32,000 bases of DNA from positions 60,001 through 92,000 of the forward strand of contig OZ246420.1 of the NCBI GenBank assembly GCA_965231145.1, given 5' to 3'. Below the pieces are notes generated by a model that was not told the DNA's origin, made no database searches, and saw nothing but the letters and a program-made list of their open reading frames with translations. Positions 11,117 through 30,250 of the stretch are shown here, in pieces. This DNA is from Candidatus Saccharimonadota bacterium. GTDB lineage: Bacteria; Patescibacteriota; Gracilibacteria; Absconditabacterales; Absconditicoccaceae. The stretch's first letter is position 1; every line of letters starts with the position of its first letter. Position numbers and translations under genes: made by a program.

Positions 11117-11144
11117 TTGACAACCAGATCAAGATTTGTAAAAT
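11117..11144 (+). promoter_or_regulatory. Sigma70-like promoter TTGACA-16-TAAAAT
   Basis: -35 at 11117..11122 and -10 at 11139..11144, 26 nt before ATG 11170. Confidence 0.55.
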
Positions 11145-11169
11145 AGTAATCACACAAATAACAAACTCT

Positions 11170-11487
11170 ATGGAAAAGATATATGAATACCTCCTAACAT
11201 ACTTTGGGATAGCATATGTGCTTCTCTTTGTGTGGCGGTGCCAACAGGTGTACCGTTATTTACAATCATTTCCTTCGTATCTACAGAGAGATTTCACCAT
11301 TGAAGAATTCATTGGGAGAAAAAGGGAGGACGTTTTTTATTGGTGCTTGCCTATCTTACCAGTGGTAGGAAGCGCTATGCTTGGCTTAATAATAGTCTTC
11401 ATCTGGATATTCCTAGTCTATGTTTTTGCAAAACTATTCTGGGATTTCATATCCGGAAAATGGACTTATGGGTCCAAAACAAATTGA
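11170..11487 (+). CDS. Hypothetical small membrane protein (105 aa)
   Basis: ATG 11170 lies 26 nt after a TTGACA-16-TAAAAT promoter. It has two hydrophobic helices and is followed by a GC hairpin with a T-run. The track ORF starts earlier (11077), which would overlap the murC promoter region. Confidence 0.5.
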   Translation: MEKIYEYLLTYFGIAYVLLFVWRCQQVYRYLQSFPSYLQRDFTIEEFIGRKREDVFYWCLPILPVVGSAMLGLIIVFIWIFLVYVFAKLFWDFISGKWTYGSKTN

Positions 11488-11516
11488 AAAAATAGTGAGT
11501 TGATGGATGAGGAGTG

Positions 11517-11543
11517 GGGCCCCGATTGCGGGGCTCTTTTTTT
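11517..11543 (+). terminator. Intrinsic terminator after the small membrane ORF
   Basis: 8-bp GC-rich stem 11517..11524 / 11529..11536 followed by T7. Confidence 0.65.
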
Positions 11544-11546
11544 GTA

Positions 11547-11572
11547 TAAAAAAAGACGCATATGAGCGCGTC
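11547..11572 (-). terminator. Intrinsic terminator after secF
   Basis: On the minus strand: gacgc, 8-nt loop, gcgtc, then a T-run (plus-strand A-run at 11548..11554). Confidence 0.5.
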
Positions 11573-11618
11573 CTCTTTTATAGCTTGCCAACAATAATGT
11601 TGTCCCTATAGTATGGAA

Positions 11619-13583: not shown

Positions 13584-13611
13584 TTGACAAAGATCTTATT
13601 ATGTATATAAT
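13584..13611 (+). promoter_or_regulatory. Sigma70-like promoter TTGACA-16-TATAAT
   Basis: -35 at 13584..13589 and -10 at 13606..13611, 23 nt before ATG 13634. Confidence 0.65.
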
Positions 13612-13633
13612 CAAAATCTAAAACGCAAATACA

Positions 13634-14128
13634 ATGAAACTTATTACAAAGATTGTGAAAGCTGCGAAGCAGCATCTTCCAGTGTTTCTGGAAAAACATA
13701 AAGATGTGCTTCCTTCCGATAAAAGCGGGGTCTATCTTTATGGTATGATAGTACACATATCAGGCACCCAGTTCTATCAGGAGGAGGCTGAAGGTGCTCT
13801 CATAGGGTTGTTGCCACAGGATAAGGTCGCTGAAAAGATGACCTATGCTGCTGAGAAGGCAATGCGGTTGCTTATAAGGCGCGTAATGGGCTATACGGAA
13901 AGGACAAGCCTGTTTACACAAAGCTATGCTGCTAAACAGTACGGTGGCGCAATATGTGTATTACTGAAAGAAAATGTGTACTGCATTCTCTCGTGCTCTA
14001 ACTTTCCACCGTTCTATGATACTGTCTTTGCTGTAGAAGTGCTGCAACTGGCTGAAGTTATCGACGAGAAGATGGTCGAACTTGTCATGGATGAGGCTCT
14101 TGCAAATGAAAATAACGGCAAGCTCTAA
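13634..14128 (+). CDS. Hypothetical protein (164 aa)
   Basis: Uninterrupted ORF with its own TTGACA-16-TATAAT promoter (13584..13611) and a strong terminator (14148..14177). There is a weak by-eye resemblance of YGGAICVLLKENVYCILSCS...DTVFA to GlcG/DUF336-type proteins. I do not rely on this. Confidence 0.5.
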   Translation: MKLITKIVKAAKQHLPVFLEKHKDVLPSDKSGVYLYGMIVHISGTQFYQEEAEGALIGLLPQDKVAEKMTYAAEKAMRLLIRRVMGYTERTSLFTQSYAAKQYGGAICVLLKENVYCILSCSNFPPFYDTVFAVEVLQLAEVIDEKMVELVMDEALANENNGKL

Positions 14129-14147
14129 AAACCTATTTCTTATACGT

Positions 14148-14177
14148 AAAAGCGCCCTGTATCAGGCGCTTTTTTTG
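14148..14177 (+). terminator. Intrinsic terminator after the 164-aa ORF
   Basis: Stem agcgcc / ggcgct followed by T7. Confidence 0.75.
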
Positions 14178-14265: not shown

Positions 14266-14874
14266 TTATTTATTATTTTTCACTTTCTTTGCAGGTTTGT
14301 CGGTAGTCGCGGCAGGTGGGTTTTCTGCATCAAGATCGGCAATGATCTTATGAAGGATTCCATTTACCAGTTTCGGAGTTCCTTCGTCGCCGTACTTCTT
14401 TGCGAGCTCAACCATCTCATTCATGATGATTTCCTTTGGTGTCTTGAGCGTTCTGTATTCCGCATAACCGAGTAGGAAAATTACTCTATCGATCAGATCC
14501 ATATCTTCGTACTTGAAACTTGTTGCGAACTTATTGACGCCGATGGCAATTGCTTCCTTGTATTCATTGTAACTCTTTCCTACGGCATTGATGTACTCAA
14601 AGTCGATTCCTGTTTCTAAGTGCTTCTCAAAGCTGTTTTTTACAATGTACGTAATGTCTTCATCGAAATCGCTATTGGAAAATTGCGCATGAAGATCGGC
14701 TTTGATCTGAGGTCTTGCGTCTTCTTCCTTTTGTGAAAGAACAGAAGCAGGGAGCTTGATATTATTGATCTCGTCGAGCATATGATCGTTATTGACCAGG
14801 TAGTCTGCGATCATTTTCTCATAGAAATAGGTGAGGACTATCTTTCTGGCAACGATACGAGCGGCTATATTCAT
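14266..14874 (-). CDS. nusB: Transcription antitermination factor NusB-like, expanded
   Basis: 202-aa ORF. ARKIVLTYFY at the N-terminus and DRVIFLLGYAEY...P..IIMNEMVELAKKYG....KLVNGILHKI at the C-terminus follow the NusB pattern. It also has a roughly 50-aa internal insertion and a Pro/Lys-rich tail. Confidence 0.65.
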   Translation of the reverse strand: MNIAARIVARKIVLTYFYEKMIADYLVNNDHMLDEINNIKLPASVLSQKEEDARPQIKADLHAQFSNSDFDEDITYIVKNSFEKHLETGIDFEYINAVGKSYNEYKEAIAIGVNKFATSFKYEDMDLIDRVIFLLGYAEYRTLKTPKEIIMNEMVELAKKYGDEGTPKLVNGILHKIIADLDAENPPAATTDKPAKKVKNNK

Positions 14875-14889
14875 CTTATCAATTCGAAG

Positions 14890-14944
14890 TGTTAAATGTT
14901 AAATGCTCAATAATATTGAGAATTGAGCCTTTTGCATTGAGAAT
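14890..14944. repeat. Word element (GTTAAAT x2; ATTGAG x3 with ctcaat/attgag hairpin)
   Basis: gttaaatgttaaatg, then ctcaataatattgagaattgagccttttgcattgagaat. Confidence 0.5.
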
Positions 14945-14995
14945 ATACCATATTATTATAAGAAAAGAGTGGTGAAAAGCAAAAAGTAAATCATA

Positions 14996-15024
14996 TTGAT
15001 AAAAAGGCAAGAGAGTTATATAAT
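14996..15024 (+). promoter_or_regulatory. Sigma70-like promoter TTGATA-17-TATAAT (cassette 1)
   Basis: -35 at 14996..15001 and -10 at 15019..15024, 24 nt before ATG 15048. Confidence 0.6.
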
Positions 15025-15047
15025 CCCATTCTAAAAACAAAAAACGT

Positions 15048-15404
15048 ATGAGTTCATCTATGTTAAAAATTACGACTGGATTTTTATACAAAATACACAG
15101 GATCATTATTTACCTTGTATTTGTTTGCCTCTTTGTGTGGCTTTTAGGGTGTAACTACGGTGCGCATTCTGAAATCCAAGTATTGGTTGCTGCTCCTATT
15201 GTGGCGGCAACGCTATGCTCATTTCTGTCGATTTCCGCCACCAAGTGGAAGGCAGATTTGCTTACTGCCATAGCGATTCTAAGTGTTATTATTGCTGCGG
15301 GTTTTTTGATTATGTTTCACGATTTTTTGTGGGCTGGTTCTATGAGCCTGCTAAGTGTAGTCAGTTACATTATGACTTATCTTGGAGTTTTTTCTTCTAG
15401 GTAA
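15048..15404 (+). CDS. Small 4-TM membrane protein, cassette 1 of 4
   Basis: 118-aa ORF with four hydrophobic segments. It has its own promoter (14996..15024) and terminator (15407..15435). Confidence 0.6.
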   Translation: MSSSMLKITTGFLYKIHRIIIYLVFVCLFVWLLGCNYGAHSEIQVLVAAPIVAATLCSFLSISATKWKADLLTAIAILSVIIAAGFLIMFHDFLWAGSMSLLSVVSYIMTYLGVFSSR

Positions 15405-15406
15405 AT

Positions 15407-15435
15407 AGCGAGAGGAGTATCCCTCGCTTTTTTTG
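15407..15435 (+). terminator. Intrinsic terminator, cassette 1
   Basis: Stem agcgagagg / ccctcgct with loop agtat, then T7. Confidence 0.7.
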
Positions 15436-15463
15436 TTGACAAAACATAGCGTAATCCTACAAT
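15436..15463 (+). promoter_or_regulatory. Sigma70-like promoter TTGACA-16-TACAAT (cassette 2)
   Basis: -35 at 15436..15441 and -10 at 15458..15463, 22 nt before ATG 15485. It begins directly after the T-run of the preceding terminator. Confidence 0.65.
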
Positions 15464-15484
15464 CGAGACTTAAACCAAACGCTT

Positions 15485-15874
15485 ATGACAAAACGTTACA
15501 AAAGTTATCTGAAGCATGCTGCCGTTTGGGTAGCGCTCGTACTATTGGCTGGTTGGATATTTGCTCTTCCTTTGCAGCTTGTCGGCAGCCTTGTTGTTCA
15601 GGTAGCCATTATCATGGCTATATGGAAAATAGATGAACTTGTTGTCACTACTATGCACAATAAGTACAAACAAGAAATTGTGGCTTTTTTCCTTTTAGGA
15701 GTAGGAGTCACTATTTTATTGGGAACTATCGGACTACTCATCTATTTCCGTCCTAAAGTATGGGGAGGTATGATGACCTTAACGGTGCTTACTCCACTTG
15801 TCATTCTTGTTGTAGAATATATTATTGCTATCAAAACGAGTGCTTGGGATGATGGACAATTTGGCCTTGAATAA
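15485..15874 (+). CDS. Small 4-TM membrane protein, cassette 2 of 4
   Basis: 129-aa ORF with four hydrophobic segments. It has its own promoter (15436..15463) and terminator (15886..15911). Confidence 0.6.
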   Translation: MTKRYKSYLKHAAVWVALVLLAGWIFALPLQLVGSLVVQVAIIMAIWKIDELVVTTMHNKYKQEIVAFFLLGVGVTILLGTIGLLIYFRPKVWGGMMTLTVLTPLVILVVEYIIAIKTSAWDDGQFGLE

Positions 15875-15885
15875 GACATGATAAT

Positions 15886-15911
15886 GCGCGCTGTACCAGC
15901 GCGTTTTTTTT
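15886..15911 (+). terminator. Intrinsic terminator, cassette 2
   Basis: Stem cgcgctg / cagcgcg with loop tac, then T8. Confidence 0.75.
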
Positions 15912-15913
15912 AA

Positions 15914-15941
15914 TTGAAAATTATGTGGTCAGCAGTATAAT
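15914..15941 (+). promoter_or_regulatory. Sigma70-like promoter TTGAAA-16-TATAAT (cassette 3)
   Basis: -35 at 15914..15919 and -10 at 15936..15941, 21 nt before ATG 15962. Confidence 0.65.
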
Positions 15942-15961
15942 GATGGTCTAAACAAGTGTGT

Positions 15962-16351
15962 ATGAAACAAAAACTATATTACTTCGGTTATGTCATCGGA
16001 GCTCAGTGTTTATGTGCAATGCCAGTGTATTGGCTGACTAACCCAGGGACGATGGTCGGCTTTTCGATCGTGATGGCGTATATTGCAGCGTGTTTACTGG
16101 GCGATATGTATGTCCTTGAGGGCTTCATGAGAAATAAACTGCTGCGGACTTTATTGTTGGTAGCGGCCGTAATAGTCTTTTTGCCGGGTTGTATACTCAT
16201 GCTGCTAGGAACTTTTATTGTTGCAGTAAGCGAAGGGCTCTATTTTGCTTTATTGGTATTGCTGTGTAGTGTGTTTTATTTTGTCTGGGCGGCAATAATG
16301 CTTCCCAAAAAGATTGGGAACACTATGGAACAAAGTGGAGTGTTTGCGTAA
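15962..16351 (+). CDS. Small 4-TM membrane protein, cassette 3 of 4
   Basis: ATG 15962 (MKQKLYYFGYVIGAQ...). It is a clear paralog of the 16483 ORF: same MKQKL start, shared (F/L)(M/V)RNK(L/I) loop string, same TM spacing. It has its own promoter (15914..15941) and terminator (16405..16431). Confidence 0.65.
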   Translation: MKQKLYYFGYVIGAQCLCAMPVYWLTNPGTMVGFSIVMAYIAACLLGDMYVLEGFMRNKLLRTLLLVAAVIVFLPGCILMLLGTFIVAVSEGLYFALLVLLCSVFYFVWAAIMLPKKIGNTMEQSGVFA

Positions 16352-16404
16352 AATATCTATAACATCAGGACTTTACTATTGGCCGTATGAATTTATGCGA
16401 TGTT

Positions 16405-16431
16405 GAACGGGAGATTTCTTCCGTTTTTTTT
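16405..16431 (+). terminator. Intrinsic terminator, cassette 3
   Basis: Stem aacggga / ttccgtt (with one G-U pair), then T8. Confidence 0.6.
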
Positions 16432-16433
16432 GA

Positions 16434-16461
16434 TTGACAACTACATGTCCAGCAATATAAT
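16434..16461 (+). promoter_or_regulatory. Sigma70-like promoter TTGACA-16-TATAAT (cassette 4)
   Basis: -35 at 16434..16439 and -10 at 16456..16461, 22 nt before ATG 16483. Confidence 0.65.
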
Positions 16462-16482
16462 CGAATCTTAAACAAATAATAC

Positions 16483-16887
16483 ATGAAACAAAAACTATTT
16501 TTCTTCATTGCTGTTATCGTTGCACAGAGTATATGGGGCTTACCATTTTTTCTTACTAAATCACGTGAAGTTGAATGGCTTGCTTCAATGACGTGCTATG
16601 TCCTAGTATGTTTAGGTGGGCATCTCTATGTTATCATAGGACTTGTGCGAAATAAGATAGTAGAGACAGTATTGTCGGTGATATTAGTCGTTTCCTTTCT
16701 AGTATCTGGCCTTATACTACTGGCTATGATGCTTTTGATGGCAAGCAGGTTAGAGTTTTTTATCTTTCCGATTGTATTGCTTTGTGCTCTGTATTTGATT
16801 AATGCAGGACGGACAATACCAAAAGAGCTCGATGCATTTATGGTAAAAAGGCAATGGCTCAAAAACAGCTTATGGTTTAATAGCTGA
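16483..16887 (+). CDS. Small 4-TM membrane protein, cassette 4 of 4
   Basis: 134-aa ORF (MKQKLFFFIAVIVAQ...), paralog of the 15962 ORF. It has its own promoter (16434..16461) and terminator (16904..16931). Confidence 0.65.
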   Translation: MKQKLFFFIAVIVAQSIWGLPFFLTKSREVEWLASMTCYVLVCLGGHLYVIIGLVRNKIVETVLSVILVVSFLVSGLILLAMMLLMASRLEFFIFPIVLLCALYLINAGRTIPKELDAFMVKRQWLKNSLWFNS

Positions 16888-16903
16888 AGTTATGTACTTA
16901 AAT

Positions 16904-16931
16904 ACGGCGATGTTCTATCGCCGTTTTTTTT
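16904..16931 (+). terminator. Intrinsic terminator, cassette 4
   Basis: Stem acggcgat / atcgccgt with loop gttct, then T8. Confidence 0.75.
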
Positions 16932-16933
16932 CA

Positions 16934-16967
16934 TAAAAAAATGGTTGCCGGTAAGCCGGAAACCATT
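16934..16967 (-). terminator. Intrinsic terminator after the 112-aa ORF
   Basis: On the minus strand: aatggtttccgg, loop ctta, ccggcaaccatt, then T7. Confidence 0.7.
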
Positions 16968-16985
16968 GCCCTGTTTGCTATCTTA

Positions 16986-17324
16986 TTAATTTTGCGCTCC
17001 AATAGTACTTACGAGCAGGGTGTCGTCTTCTTGTACTTGTACTATGGTTGTTGGGGCTTTAAACTGTAAAACCGTAAGGAATACTCCAGGTTTTTTAAGT
17101 GTTTGCCATATTTCATTTGTTAACGCATCGGGGTGAATGTGAGTGGTTGCACTCCGAAGTTCTTGTACTTGAGGCGGTACAGAAATCACAGATAATTCAT
17201 CTCCCAGTGTGCCATTAGATGCAAAGTGTGCAACATGCCCGAAAGGCAGTACAGAGGGATCTATTTGTAGTGTGAAAATGATCCCATGATTTTTAAACAA
17301 CTCGTGTGCTTTTGTGTAGTTCAT
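16986..17324 (-). CDS. Hypothetical protein (112 aa)
   Basis: Uninterrupted ORF with a true TAA stop, followed on its own strand by a strong hairpin and T-run (16934..16967). I recognise no motif. Confidence 0.5.
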   Translation of the reverse strand: MNYTKAHELFKNHGIIFTLQIDPSVLPFGHVAHFASNGTLGDELSVISVPPQVQELRSATTHIHPDALTNEIWQTLKKPGVFLTVLQFKAPTTIVQVQEDDTLLVSTIGAQN

Positions 17325-17396
17325 AATTTGCTGTTTTATGTTTTAGCAATGGTAGTTGTTGGGAGCCATAATGCAATATAAAATAATTTTTTATAA

Positions 17397-17418
17397 CAAA
17401 AAACGAGCTCAGAGCCCG
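17397..17418 (-). terminator. Weak intrinsic terminator after rpmF
   Basis: 5-bp stem. It includes a G-U pair that forms only in the minus-strand RNA. A T-run follows. Confidence 0.35.
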
Positions 17419-17448
17419 CTTTTTACCATAAGAAAATAAGAGAGGAGA

Positions 17449-17676
17449 CTATGCGTCGATAGTCTTGCTCTTGTCCTTTGACTTGATCGTGATGATCTGC
17501 TTTCCAGCGTAGAAACCACATGAAGGACATACTCTATGAGTGAGCTTGTACTTCCCGCAGTTTGTACACTTTACCTGCGGATATCTTTCAGTCAATCTTA
17601 CGAGATTGAGTCTGAGCCATGCAGAGTGTCTTACGTGCTTCTTATGTATGGAATTCTTTTTCCTAGGTACTGCCAT
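17449..17676 (-). CDS. rpmF: 50S ribosomal protein L32
   Basis: MAVPRKKNS..KKHVRHS plus the zinc ribbon CTNCGKYKLTHRVCPSCGFYAGK match the bL32 pattern. Confidence 0.85.
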   Translation of the reverse strand: MAVPRKKNSIHKKHVRHSAWLRLNLVRLTERYPQVKCTNCGKYKLTHRVCPSCGFYAGKQIITIKSKDKSKTIDA

Positions 17677-18205: not shown

Positions 18206-21200
18206 TTACTCATTTCAAGTGATTTCTTCCTGACTTTTTCCTTCGAGTTCTTCAAGTTTTTGTCTGTAGATCTCACCAACTGGGAGGAGACGTCCGATAA
18301 TCACATTTGACTTGAGGTCATTGAGATAGTCGATGCTTCCCTTGAGTGAGTTGTCCACCATCACACGGATTGTTTCCTGAAATGATGCCGCAGACAACCA
18401 GCTGTCAGTCTCTTTTGCAATGTGTGTCAGACCAAGCGCAAGACGCTTTCCTTTCGCACATTGTTTCTTTTGAGCAGCAAGCTCTTCGTTCACTGTTACA
18501 TATTCTTCGTATTTGATCATCGTACCTGGGATGAAACTACTGTCTCCCGCATCTTCAATGAATACCTTAGAGAAGAGCTGTTTCACAATAACTTCCATGT
18601 ACTTGTCATTTACGTCCTGACCTTGAGATGTATATACTTTCTTCACTTCTCTTACGATATACTTCTGCGCTTCAAGGTCTCCTACGATAGCTTTGTACTC
18701 ATCTACGTCGAGTGCGCCAGTAGAGATAACCTGTCCTTTGAGAACAGAAGCTCCTGATTTCACCTTGAGGATTGTACCTCCAGAAAGAGATTTCTTGTAC
18801 TTTTGGATCACACCAACAGTAAGATAGTCTTTGTGTACTTCGAGTACCACACCGTCTTCTTTGAGCTTCAATTTGCTCTTTCCAAGACTTGCATAGTCAT
18901 CTCCTTTCTTTACTTCTTGTCCAACCTTCACAGTCGCCTTATATCCTTCTTTAATAACATATGGCTTTGGTTCTGGATCTCCGATGATTTCCACATCAAC
19001 CTGTTTTCCTGTTTCAGTTGTGATCACTTTTCCATCGAAAGGAGCAACAATAGCGGCTTTCTTCGGCTTTCTTACTTCAAATAATTCTTCTACTCTTCTA
19101 ATACCTTGCGACATGTCGGTTCCTTCGCCTCCGGCTACGTTTTCCGCATGGAATGTACGCATCGTGAGCTGAGTACCTGGCTCACCAATAGATTGTGATG
19201 AGATAATACCAACAGGCATACCAATCTCGACAGGCTTTCTTGTAGAAAGATCCATACCGAAACATTTCTGACATACACCACTGATGACTTTACATGTCAT
19301 AGGAGATCTTACTTTCACCATAGATACATCTGCATCAATAATGAGTTTCACATTTCTCTTGTCGAGGATCTCGCCTTGTTTGATGATTACGTTTCCGTTT
19401 GCATCTGTCGCATCGTGACTCAAAACTCTACCGAAGATGAGATCTTTGTATGGCTCATTTCTGAGTTCTGATTCTTCCTTCGTAAATGCGATATACTCCT
19501 GTGTTCCACAGTCAACTTTTCTCACGATAACTTCTTGTGATGAGTCACAGAGTCTTCTTGTAAGATAACCTGATTCTGCAGTTCTGAGGGCCGTATCCGC
19601 TTTACCTTTACGTGCACCGTGGGCAGCAATAAAGTATTCGATAGGCGAGAATCCTTCTACGAGCGAAGCTTGAATAGGGAGCTCAATAATTTCTCCTGAT
19701 GGAGACTGTACGAGACCTTTCATACCTGACAACTGTGTCATCTGACCCCACGTACCACGCGCTCCAGAGTCAACAAGAGTGTAGGCATTGTTACCTGGCT
19801 TATATGTTTCTTTTACAAGTTTTTCGATCTTTTTTACTACATCTGACCACGTTCTAATGATTAATCTATGTTTTTCATCTTCAGAGACGAATCCCTTAAA
19901 CGCAAAGTTGTAGATTTCATTTACCTTCACATGACCTTCCTTGAGAAGTTCTTCTTTCTCTTTCGGAACCATCATGTCAAACATGTTTACTGTCGTCGCA
20001 GAGATGGTTGCGTATTTAAATCACCGATCTTTGAGCTTGTCTGCTACCTGTACTACAACATCCATTTCGTAGTTGTCATAGATTTCATCAAGGATCTTTT
20101 TAATTCCTTTCTTTGTAATAGTCTCGTTTTTAAATCTAATCTTTTCAGGGAGAAGATCATTGAAGAGAACTCTACCAACAGTTGTATCGATATACTGACC
20201 ATCATGAAGGAATTTAATTTGATGACGGAGATGTACATCTCCGGCGTAGTAACGGCTCTTGACTGCCTCATAGTTCGTGAAGATGCCTGCGTATGTAGGT
20301 GTTTTTGTATAATTGTCTGTGACATAATAGATACCGAGCGTCATATCCTGATGGTGAGTAATAGTTGGCTCACCAGATGATGGTTTCAAGATGTTTTTGT
20401 CTGCTGCGATAAGTTCTTTTGCTTCTTTTTGTGCTTCTTCTGAAAGAGGAAGATGTACTGCCATCTGGTCTCCGTCGAAGTCGGCGTTGAACGATGCACA
20501 CACGAGTGGGTGTAGTCTGATAGTCTTTCCAGGCATAAGTTTGATCTTGAACGCTTCGATAGAAAGTCTATGAAGTGTTGGTGCACGGTTGAGGAGCACA
20601 TATTTATCTTTGATCACTTCTTCAAGAATCTTAAGTGAAATTGGGTTTTCTTCCTTGATAAGTTTTTCTGCCTGTTTTGGAGTATAGACGATCTTTCTTT
20701 CGATAAGTTTTCCGATGATGAAAGGTGTGAACATCTTTACCGCGATGTAGAGAGGGAGTCCACATTCATCGAGTTTGAGCTGAGGTCAAACAGTAATTAC
20801 CGATCTACCTGAGTAGTCCACACGTTTACCAAGTAAGTTCTTTCTGAATATACCTTCCTTACCAGAAAGCATGTCCGTCAGAGATTTAAATACTTTCACT
20901 CCTGAACCTCCCTTAGCAGCACCAGCTTTTTCCCCGACGATAAGATTGTTGATAGATTCCTGGAGGAGTCTGATTTCGTTTTTCTTTACGACATCGGGCA
21001 TGCCAACCTGGATCATTTTCTTCAAACGGATATTACGCATGAGTACGCGTCTATAGAACAGATTCACGTCAGATGATGCAAATCTACCTCCATCGAGCTG
21101 TACAACTGGTCTAAGGTCTGGTGGGATAACTGGAAGGTTTTTAATCACCATCCACTCAGGTTTTACGCCAGAAATATAGAGGTTGATGAGAAGTTTCATA

Positions 21201-22012
21201 AGCTTAAGAGCTTTGTTTTTCGCTTCACCCTTAAATCCACCAAAGTCTTTGATAAGATCTTTGATTTCTTTCTCTACATTTACATTTGAAAGGAGTTTAT
21301 AGATAGCTTCAGAACCAGATTTGAAACTAAGAATATCATCAAATCTCCAGAAAATATTTCTGTAATCACTTTCGAGGATAGTTGCGCTTGTCTTAAGGTT
21401 TGCTACCACAGACTTGATTCTGTTGAACTCTTTTTCAATATTATTCTTGTTGTCTGCGTAAAGCTTTTCTACATCGTTTTTCTTTGTAGAGTTCACAGCT
21501 TCCTCTTTGTAGAGCGCCTCGATCTCTTCAAGCTTTGTCTTGTAGTCCGCCTCAAGTCTTTTGAAAATTTCTTTCTTGTCAGCCTCTGATACGTCGTTGA
21601 TAAGAACATACTTCACGAAGTAGAGAATCTTTTCGATCTCGTTTACTGAGAGATTGAGAAGAAGACCAATCCTTGAAGGAGTAGCTTTGATATACCATAC
21701 GTGGATAACTGGGGCGGCGAGTTCTACATGTCCCATCCTTTCTCTTCTTACTCTCGATGTTGTTACTTCAACACCACAGCGCTCACATACAATTCCCTTA
21801 TATCTCACACCTTTATATTTTCCACATCCACATTCATAGTTCTTCATAGGTCCGAAAATGGCTTCACAAAAAAGCCCTCTGGGTTTTGGCTTCCCAGTTC
21901 TATAGTTGATAGTATCAGGACTATCTACTGAACCGAACGACCATTTTGCGATGTTCTCTGGTGAAGCAAGCGTCACCATCAGTCCATCAAAATGAGATTT
22001 TTCCATATGCAA
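18206..22012 (-). CDS. rpoC: DNA-directed RNA polymerase subunit beta'
   Basis: Track ORFs 20786..22012, 20021..20734 and 18215..19984 share one frame and join through TGA 20786 (GRSVITV-G-PQL) and TGA 20021 (LKDR-G-FKYA). TGA 18215 is also read through, giving ...EEIT-G-NE and TAA 18206..18208. The catalytic NADFDGDQM motif is present; 1268 aa. Confidence 0.95.
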
Positions 22013-22035
22013 TACACACTAATAAACTAAATAGT

Positions 22036-22185: not shown

Positions 22186-25770
<3,585 letters not shown>

Positions 25771-25802
25771 GAAGAGGAGATGAATAAATTAAAATAATAT
25801 GC

Positions 25803-30059: not shown

Positions 30060-30250
30060 CGTGTGCCCGTCATAATATAAAATAAAAAAATGTCCCTGAG
30101 GAGAGGAACAAGGCATACAAAAAACATTGCAGTGCAATCTTATCTGTAGCCAATTACCTCGGTAGGAGATTGCTCATTAAATCAGCTAGAACGCTGATAC
30201 CTACTGTCTTTGTATAATTGGTAACGATTCGTATTGCTCGAATCACAGAT

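Follow-up and report, generated by a model that had tools for sequence, protein, structure and literature searches.

Tandem arrays of small membrane immunity genes are a recognized genomic arrangement, serving class II bacteriocin or pore-forming colicin immunity or standing as orphan immunity arrays. Phage morons, too, are typically self-contained units, each with its own promoter, gene and terminator. In yeast, transmembrane (TM) proteins have been described to emerge de novo from thymine-rich sequence (PMC7005711), whereas how ORFans arise in bacteria is an open question (PMC12315717). Here, we analyzed a 32,000-nucleotide (nt) stretch of an Absconditabacterales genome (contig OZ246420.1, positions 60,001 to 92,000; hereafter the window, numbered from its first letter), in which four consecutive plus-strand gene cassettes, each predicted to encode a small membrane protein, lie between the conserved genes nusB and rpmF. 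An earlier note, made from the sequence alone, had described this array as four self-contained promoter-gene-terminator cassettes. In the reading that we favor, with a confidence only slightly better than even, the locus is a modular accessory islet of orphan four-helix envelope-protein cassettes that are kept diverse, and a protective role is the most plausible one for them.

Each of the four open reading frames (ORFs) has its own promoter-like site upstream and its own terminator hairpin downstream, with consensus elements of a sigma-70 promoter/intrinsic terminator unit correctly spaced around every one of them (Table 1). The promoters score 11–12 out of 12 against a sigma-70-like consensus and the ATG starts lie 20–23 nt past them; the junction hairpins, with GC stems of 8–9 base pairs followed by seven or eight T residues, fold at −12.0 to −12.9 kcal/mol. 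The self-contained cassettes of the earlier note are borne out by these elements. Six sites scoring at least 11/12 occur in the whole window on both strands, four of them belonging to the cassettes and one each preceding the orphan genes that start at 13634 and 11170, compared to 0.97 ± 0.96 sites (maximum 4) in first-order Markov sequences modelled on the window. The promoters and terminators of the cassettes are far above chance. The distance from a T-run to the next −35 element is 0–3 nt, so that each terminator doubles as A/T-rich sequence upstream of the next promoter. Leaders are about 20 nt long, A-rich and devoid of a Shine-Dalgarno sequence. All five strong promoters, including that of the orphan at 13634, carry the word (T)CTAAA(A)C 5–7 nt past the −10 element (13617-13624, 15030-15037, 15470-15476, 15948-15954 and 16467-16473), which may mark the transcription start or provide a Shine-Dalgarno-independent initiation signal. 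Judged from their sequence, the cassettes are most likely four independently transcribed units.

By RpoC identity to the window, the nearest genomes are metagenome-assembled genomes of Patescibacteria/Absconditabacterales. Among close relatives, the core genes flanking the array are conserved and the content between them differs, as expected of a strain-variable genomic islet; the comparison of copy number between strains that the earlier note had proposed gave 0, 1, 2, at least 2, or 4 cassettes. Locus L049 (a JGI contig, RpoC identity 90%) has no cassette in its 133-nt gap between rpmF and nusB, and L004 (JAUIDC01, 86%) has one, encoding a 145-amino-acid (aa) protein with no significant similarity. 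Denoting the proteins of cassettes 1–4 as P1–P4, L003 (JAGOPC01, 89%) carries two P1-like cassettes. At least two cassettes are present in L043/L044, one P2-like (61% identity) and one P3-like (70%, protein P0002), with rpmF next and neither P4 nor h112, the minus-strand orphan gene that completes the islet of the window. Four are present in L045 (a Logan contig, 97%): a P1-like (51%) and a P3-like cassette (58%), and two ORFs without detectable similarity, together with an ortholog of h112 (57%). P2 has no counterpart in L045, where the corresponding slot holds an unrelated ORF, and P4 is missing from both L043/L044 and L045. The P3 orthologs keep a length of 129 aa in three lineages, and the ORF of the L045 P1 ortholog is intact. 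Since RpoC identity nests the empty L049 within the cassette-bearing clade, units appear to have been repeatedly lost or gained at this site. In more distant Absconditabacterales/Gracilibacteria (L005-L008, L010, L013, L018 and L027), nusB directly follows rpmF, at a gap of 35–250 nt. Three independent sequencing runs (ERR4405439, ERR4405441 and ERR7850080) show the arrangement of the window again, with its proteins unchanged. Every cassette of L003, L004, L045 and L044 has the build of those in the window: a hairpin and T-run, a TTGACA-like −35 element, a spacer of 16–17 nt, a −10 element, a CTAAA(A)C leader without Shine-Dalgarno sequence, and an ORF of 113–145 aa with four TM segments. The full leader word (T)CTAAA(A)C is found again in the cassettes of L003 and L045.

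Divergence within the islet exceeds that of the backbone and is accompanied by signs of recombination. Between the window and L045, identity is 82–90% in nusB, 94–98% in the nusB/cassette-1 intergenic region and 94–100% in rpmF, and falls to 40–60% from the cassette 1 ATG to the rpmF 3′ end, with sharp edges at both points and small peaks inside at junction 1/2 (78%) and the terminal terminator (75%). Nonsynonymous (dN) and synonymous (dS) divergence were estimated by the Nei-Gojobori method. Between the window and L043, P3 has a dN of 0.18, a dS of 0.70 and a dN/dS of 0.26, compared to a dS of 0.07–0.20 and a dN/dS of at most 0.07 for rpmF, rpmA and the 3′ end of rpoC. Across the P3 orthologs dN/dS is 0.25–0.37, and the dS of cassettes is 3–10 times that of the flanks. 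Ratios well below 1 indicate that the cassette genes are under purifying selection and hence real genes. The fast protein divergence claimed earlier holds insofar as the cassettes diverge far faster than their flanks; because dS is raised as well, it is not simply fast protein evolution, and the combination of raised dS and low dN/dS argues for alleles that are old or recombined and under purifying selection, and not for runaway positive selection. By this comparison, the cassette alleles are either much older than the flanks or imported by recombination. The pattern at the site fits balancing or frequency-dependent selection, not a simple acceleration by positive selection.

The left and right flanks differ in history: between the window and L045, dS is 0.09 for rpmF and 1.2 for nusB, which places a recombination boundary in or beside the islet. 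Using blastn, junction modules were located at equal offsets in the islets of the window and L045 (2574 and 2572 nt). Junction 1/2 and its L045 counterpart at equal offset share 75% identity, and slots 2 and 3 hold unrelated ORFs in the two islets; P3 sits in the third slot of the window, its L045 ortholog in the fourth. A 35-nt terminator/−35 stretch is 89% identical between non-corresponding junctions of the two islets. From these patterns we infer recombination at the junctions.

By hydropathy scan, P1, P2 and P4 each have four hydrophobic segments; only three are called in P3, the first helix of which (residues 5–25) falls under the cut-off. An AlphaFold2 model of P3, built on three sequences and of low confidence (pLDDT 55.6), has helices at residues 2–25, 31–55, 59–90 and 93–124; the four helices that had been claimed for every protein are therefore found by scan in three of them and by structure prediction in P3. 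In P1, P2 and P4, 6–9 lysine and arginine residues fall on the N terminus, central loop and C terminus vs 0–3 on the other segments. This distribution of basic residues makes an N-in/C-in topology likely; for P3, the same topology is proposed from its alignment with P4 and from the four helices of the model. With both paralogs N-in, a dual-topology pair was rejected.

P3 and P4 are 33% identical over 122 residues (E = 8e-15) and have in common a MKQKL(Y/F)(Y/F)F start and an RNK loop. Their terminator-promoter-leader DNA is 70–73% identical vs 60% for the coding DNA, reaching 80% over a 40-nt terminator-to-promoter stretch (15902-15941 vs 16422-16461), and direct repeats with a period of 520–521 nt span the terminator, promoter and 5′ coding part of both cassettes. 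On this sequence evidence, cassettes 3 and 4 are paralogs by tandem duplication of the whole expression unit, in agreement with the earlier note, which had also observed that their control DNA is more alike than their coding DNA. Its further view that cassettes 1 and 2 are diverged copies stands for the common layout, but common ancestry with cassettes 3 and 4 is not demonstrable. Neither BLAST nor HHalign finds significant similarity between P1 and P2, a pair that beats only a shuffle control, in which residues were permuted inside 12-residue blocks and the hydropathy profile was retained (z = 3.3). By the same control, z exceeds 2 in 16 of 45 cassette-protein pairs: P1 reaches 2.7–3.0 against the two L003 proteins, which give z = 8 against the L045 P1 ortholog and 4.6 against each other, and the second-cassette proteins of L045 and L003 reach 4.1. 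BLAST and HHalign back two groups only, a P1-like one (P1, the first protein of L045 and both proteins of L003) and a P3-like one (P3, P4, the L043 protein and the fourth of L045), and HHalign between cassette groups is not significant (2.5% probability). The similarity network is weak evidence, short of proof, for a single rapidly diverging superfamily comprising all cassettes.

That the proteins belong to no known family, as the earlier note had surmised, was upheld throughout. Scans of P1–P4, h112 and a 164-aa neighbor against Pfam, NCBIfam, PHROGs and PADLOC gave nothing above noise, and family scans of the cassette proteins of relatives were likewise without match. A sequence search of the PDB returned chance GPCR/ABC transmembrane matches only, and Foldseek with the P3 model found nothing in the PDB below E = 1. 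A search of 5.8e9 proteins returned the query itself and one ortholog, with no homolog for P1. An exhaustive HMM search of 1.84e9 representatives yielded only P0002, P4 and one spurious repetitive protein, so that the genome-wide paralog count raised in the earlier note brought no further detectable paralogs of P3/P4. Scans of IMG/VR with P1, P2 and the P3/P4 alignment found no relatives, and neither tblastn against INPHARED nor blastn against PLSDB gave a match. By these searches, the cassette proteins are orphans with homologs in this clade only.

Several named candidates could be set aside. SMR transporters (EmrE-like, Pfam PF00893) were rejected because P1–P4 have no profile match at E ≤ 1 and their first TM helix (TM1) lacks any D or E, and with it the characteristic TM1 glutamate. 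PACE/AceI (NCBIfam NF033663) was rejected because the nearly full-length match of P2 scores 13.4 bits (E = 0.063) against a curated cut-off of 180; the other three proteins have no match. Holins and CidA-LrgA holin-like proteins were rejected in the absence of Pfam or PHROGs matches and of phage genes nearby. Bacteriocin and colicin immunity families in Pfam and NCBIfam gave no match for P1–P4. Integron cassettes were rejected as well: the junction repeats are terminators, the units have their own promoters, there is no attC, and no integrase is found among the called genes within ±10 kb; att-like repeats were not found. Housekeeping subunits, a match to which would have told against the reading of the earlier note, were likewise rejected, with no such family in the profile searches and the genes absent from L049.

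The ends of the terminal cassettes have to be read in light of the genetic code. TGA is a sense codon genome-wide: rpoC (18206-22018, minus strand) and rpoB (22186-25788, minus strand) are intact only with TGA read through, and two TGA codons of rpoC align with Gly in 8 or 9 of 9 standard-code RpoC sequences, on which basis the genome is assigned code 25 (UGA=Gly). Lists of ORFs made with table 11 break many genes of the window into fragments. The UGA-to-Gly reassignment is known for Absconditabacteria and Gracilibacteria (PMC10746230). ORF 4 ends in TGA (16885-16887), and its code 25 frame crosses its own terminator and the convergent terminator of h112 to a TAA, giving 168 aa. The lengths of 118, 129, 129 and 134 aa reported earlier thus agree with the ORF list, with the reservation that the fourth is formally 168 aa. 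A TGA 17–30 nt before the terminator is found in 3 of 5 terminal cassettes (the fourth of the window, the second of L003 and the P3-like one of L043/L044) and in none of 7 internal ones. In the P3-like gene of L043/L044 the TGA stands exactly at the TAA position of the window and L045, and the orphan at 11170 likewise has a TGA upstream of its terminator. In a survey of terminators from 28 code-25 loci, a TGA lay within 90 nt upstream in 5 of 10 ORFs reading into a hairpin vs 3 of 27 canonical ORF ends, which is suggestive but not decisive. With UGA read as Gly, the TGA-ended cassettes imply extended or non-stop products; alternatively, a stop codon could have been lost recently, or the ORFs could descend from standard-code DNA. 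Among the predicted phages of Absconditabacteria lineages, some keep to the standard code (PMC10746230).

Table 1. Features of the cassette array and its islet; positions refer to the window unless another locus is named.
Feature	Position	Strand	Basis or remark
Variable islet, 2574 nt: four plus-strand cassettes and one minus-strand orphan (h112)	14875-17448		between nusB (14266-14874, −) and rpmF (17449-17676, −)
Cassette 1 promoter, TTGATA-17-TATAAT	14996-15024	+	consensus scan; back to back with conserved nusB upstream region
Cassette 1 ORF, P1, 118 aa, 4 TM, N-in/C-in (predicted)	15048-15404	+	ORF list, hydropathy; 51% ortholog in L045
Cassette 1 terminator, hairpin 15408-15427 + T7, −12.0 kcal/mol	15408-15434	+	T-run abuts cassette 2 −35
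Cassette 2 promoter, TTGACA-16-TACAAT	15436-15463	+	consensus scan
Cassette 2 ORF, P2, 129 aa, 4 TM	15485-15874	+	ORF list, hydropathy; partial 61% ortholog in L044
Cassette 2 terminator, hairpin 15886-15904 + T8, −12.9 kcal/mol	15886-15912	+	same hairpin in L044
Cassette 3 promoter, TTGAAA-16-TATAAT	15914-15941	+	consensus scan
Cassette 3 ORF, P3, 129 aa from ATG, 4 predicted helices	15956/15962-16351	+	ORF list, AlphaFold2
Cassette 3 terminator, hairpin 16405-16426 with T8, −12.0 kcal/mol	16405-16431	+	89% identical over 35 nt to an L045 junction
Cassette 4 promoter, TTGACA-16-TATAAT, 12/12	16434-16461	+	consensus scan
Cassette 4 ORF, P4, 134 aa to in-frame TGA	16483-16887	+	P3 paralog; under code 25 open to TAA 16987-16989
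Cassette 4 terminator, hairpin 16904-16924 + T8, −12.6 kcal/mol	16904-16932	+	orthologous hairpin after last cassette of L045 and L043/L044
h112 terminator, convergent, −13.9 kcal/mol, T7 on minus strand	16935-16966	−	folding
h112, orphan soluble protein, 112 aa, in variable block, convergent with cassette 4	16986-17324	−	57% ortholog in L045 only
TGA-ended orphan ORFs, TGA 17–32 nt before strong terminator	window 16885-16989; window 11485-11583; L003 13050-12963 (−); L043 460-552		under code 25 about 30 codons longer, through the hairpin

Around the cassettes, the islet has further variable and conserved parts. h112 is absent from L043/L044, L003, L004 and L049; no homolog or family was found for it beyond L045, and its AlphaFold2 model (pLDDT 47) is unusable. 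The nusB/cassette-1 intergenic region (14875-15047; L045 7171-7342; L049 4868-5000) is more similar to L045 than either flanking gene and can also be aligned in L003 and L004; the cassette-free L049 retains its nusB upstream part, directly followed by the rpmF terminator. A likely nusB promoter (TTGCTT-16-TATAAT, predicted) lies on the minus strand at about 14953-14986. In the window and L045 only, the nusB 5′ region has an insert of 47 nt with a perfect inverted repeat, CTCAATAATATTGAG, at 14906-14920; this repeat may serve as an operator or form a hairpin in the RNA. Elsewhere on the plus strand, an orphan unit at 11117-11583 comprises a promoter scoring 11/12 (11117-11144), a gene starting at 11170 for a membrane protein of 137 aa, and a terminator (11516-11537 followed by T7), and was seen in this strain only among the fetched loci. 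A second variable slot, between rnc and nusB (13584-14173, plus strand), holds the 164-aa soluble orphan (start 13634), preceded by a promoter matching at all 12 of 12 positions and followed by a terminator of its own. This orphan has a 43% ortholog in L004; in its place, L045 encodes a secreted protein of 185 aa and a 139-aa EamA-like protein behind a 12/12 promoter, and L049 carries a pair of larger genes (374 and 332 aa). The sole Rfam match of the window, a ribosomal protein L10 leader (RF00557) at 30075-30230 on the minus strand, is barely over the gathering score at 45.2 bits; the islet itself has no Rfam match.

Taken together, a model for the array emerges. Each unit would be transcribed from its own near-consensus promoter and stopped at its own hairpin, and the short A-rich leader would direct translation into a four-helix inner-membrane protein of 118–134 aa, oriented N-in/C-in. 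The four cassettes and h112 constitute a 2.6-kb accessory islet, modular and strain-specific, in a genus-level clade of UGA=Gly Absconditabacterales; in it, whole units duplicate in tandem, as from cassette 3 to 4, and are gained, lost and replaced unit by unit, probably swapped by recombination in the conserved flanks and the semi-conserved terminator-promoter junctions. Their products would be non-essential envelope proteins held diverse by frequency-dependent selection, under which being unlike one's neighbors is rewarded. A protective role, immunity- or exclusion-like, against membrane-targeting toxins or phages is the most plausible; alternatively, as the bacterium is presumably an episymbiont, the proteins may determine how it makes contact with its host cell. 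Immunity, phage exclusion and host contact are all plausible roles, and none of the tests here discriminates between them.

Several observations weigh against this model. There is no toxin, bacteriocin, phage, transposase or defence gene near the array, and the cognate toxin or bacteriocin that the earlier note had thought worth seeking is not among the neighbors, which are nusB, rpmF, rpmA, rpoC, rnc, h112 and the 164-aa orphan. Leaky terminators may yield read-through transcripts. The dS values derive from 53–130 codons and are partly saturated, and recombination at the junctions is deduced from short patches of 69–89% identity. The TGA ends of cassette 4 and of two other terminal cassettes, with products that may be extended or non-stop, fit poorly with a well-tuned gene.

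Such unpolished ORFs, running past a TGA into their terminators, would be in keeping with a gene nursery, in which the conserved shells act as expression-ready slots, where T-rich inserts give hydrophobic ORFs, whether de novo or diverged, that are mostly young proto-genes with little specific function. Every cassette protein is an orphan, several groups without significant similarity have size, topology and shell in common, the junction and promoter of slot 2 are conserved around ORFs that are unrelated in the window and L045, and the coding strand is T-rich (AT skew −0.12 to −0.17). Set against this are the dN/dS of P3, its length kept in three lineages and the retention of P1; the pairs exceeding the shuffle control favor one fast-diverging family over repeated birth, and the empty site of L049 has no precursor sequence. 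We consider a proto-gene origin improbable. Equally speculative, and to be given little credence for now, is a broader version in which rpmF-nusB offers conserved terminator-promoter-leader slots where membrane ORFs are born, swapped and discarded at the strain level, the TGA stops stemming from standard-code import or ongoing stop-loss; if true, it would reveal by what routes new genes enter or arise in a recoded genome. Import figures as well in the proposal that the cassettes are relics of a phage or other mobile element, derived from or shared with standard-code organisms. The self-contained build resembles that of morons, four orphan ORFs have a geometry that is canonical only if their TGA, 17–32 nt before the terminator, is a stop, and some predicted phages of Absconditabacteria have the standard code (PMC10746230). 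Yet IMG/VR, INPHARED, PLSDB and PHROGs gave no match, the G+C content of the cassettes (38–39%) equals that of the backbone, the CTAAA(A)C leader without Shine-Dalgarno sequence is also present at the native-looking orphan 13634, and neither integrase nor att-like repeats were found, all of which makes such relics quite unlikely.

No better supported, and in our estimate decidedly unlikely, is a function as small accessory transporters or channels, oligomeric four-TM proteins of the SMR, PACE or half-DMT kind that are too divergent for profiles and export toxic compounds. Size and layout are those of SMR and PACE, P2 has its weak, nearly full-length match to the AceI/PACE model, and the neighboring variable slot of L045 encodes an EamA-like protein behind a 12/12 promoter. 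Opposed to it are the lack of any profile at threshold, the absence of acidic residues from TM1 of all four proteins, the single topology of both paralogs, which leaves no dual-topology pair, and a turnover that would be unusually fast. The co-orientation and close spacing of the four ORFs could also suggest that they form a single read-through operon for membrane subunits with housekeeping functions, or that they are spurious. An operon is at odds with the strong hairpin and T7–8 followed by a promoter of at least 11/12 at each junction, and with the absence of the genes from the close relative L049 and their replacement in others; spurious ORFs are at odds with dN/dS below 1 and the bracketing signals. 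We regard these last options as highly improbable.

Genomes are tiny among the Patescibacteria, Absconditabacterales included, and these bacteria rely on other cells; their lineage-specific genes mostly encode uncharacterised small membrane proteins. The locus is a compact, well-delimited case of individually bracketed genes that turn over between close relatives, next to genes for translation and transcription that hardly change. Should the cassette proteins act in immunity, phage exclusion or host contact, they could be candidates for what makes strains of an uncultured episymbiont specific. The locus is also a practical system in which to study the origin and exchange of orphan genes, promoters and terminators in a code-25, Shine-Dalgarno-poor organism, and the fate of ORFs with a reassigned UGA stop.

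Among described systems, integron arrays resemble this one in their co-oriented short single-gene modules, hairpin junctions and module-wise change of content; here, the hairpins are intrinsic terminators rather than attC, the units have promoters of their own, and the surrounding 10 kb on either side is free of integrase. The SMR and PACE families match in length (about 110–140 aa) and in having four TM helices, and differ in their profiles, in their conserved TM1 glutamate and in that the genes described here are predicted to be separately transcribed and are not conserved among relatives. De novo TM proto-genes (PMC7005711) are similarly short, TM-rich orphan ORFs on a T-rich strand that fall into groups without detectable similarity; the cassettes depart from them in their purifying selection, their dedicated promoter-terminator shells and the weak similarity linking several of them. 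Closer are the immunity gene arrays, with small multi-TM proteins, tandem paralogs, rapid divergence, strain-specific sets and constitutive own promoters; the cassette proteins have no sequence relation to any immunity family, their neighborhood has no bacteriocin, toxin or export genes, and any protective activity is putative. Flexible genomic islets, in which strain-variable, envelope-related genes between core genes are kept diverse under pressure from phages or competitors, share with this locus conserved flanks, sharp boundaries, variable content, alleles diverging beyond the backbone and a cargo of membrane proteins. In contrast to them, the islet here is very small (2.6 kb) and divided into uniform units of about 0.45–0.52 kb, each with a consensus promoter and a terminator; its cargo consists only of orphan four-TM proteins, and it resides in the roughly 1.1-Mb genome of a code-25 Patescibacterium. 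The array is of the flexible genomic islet or tandem immunity-like array kind, and it carries new protein families.

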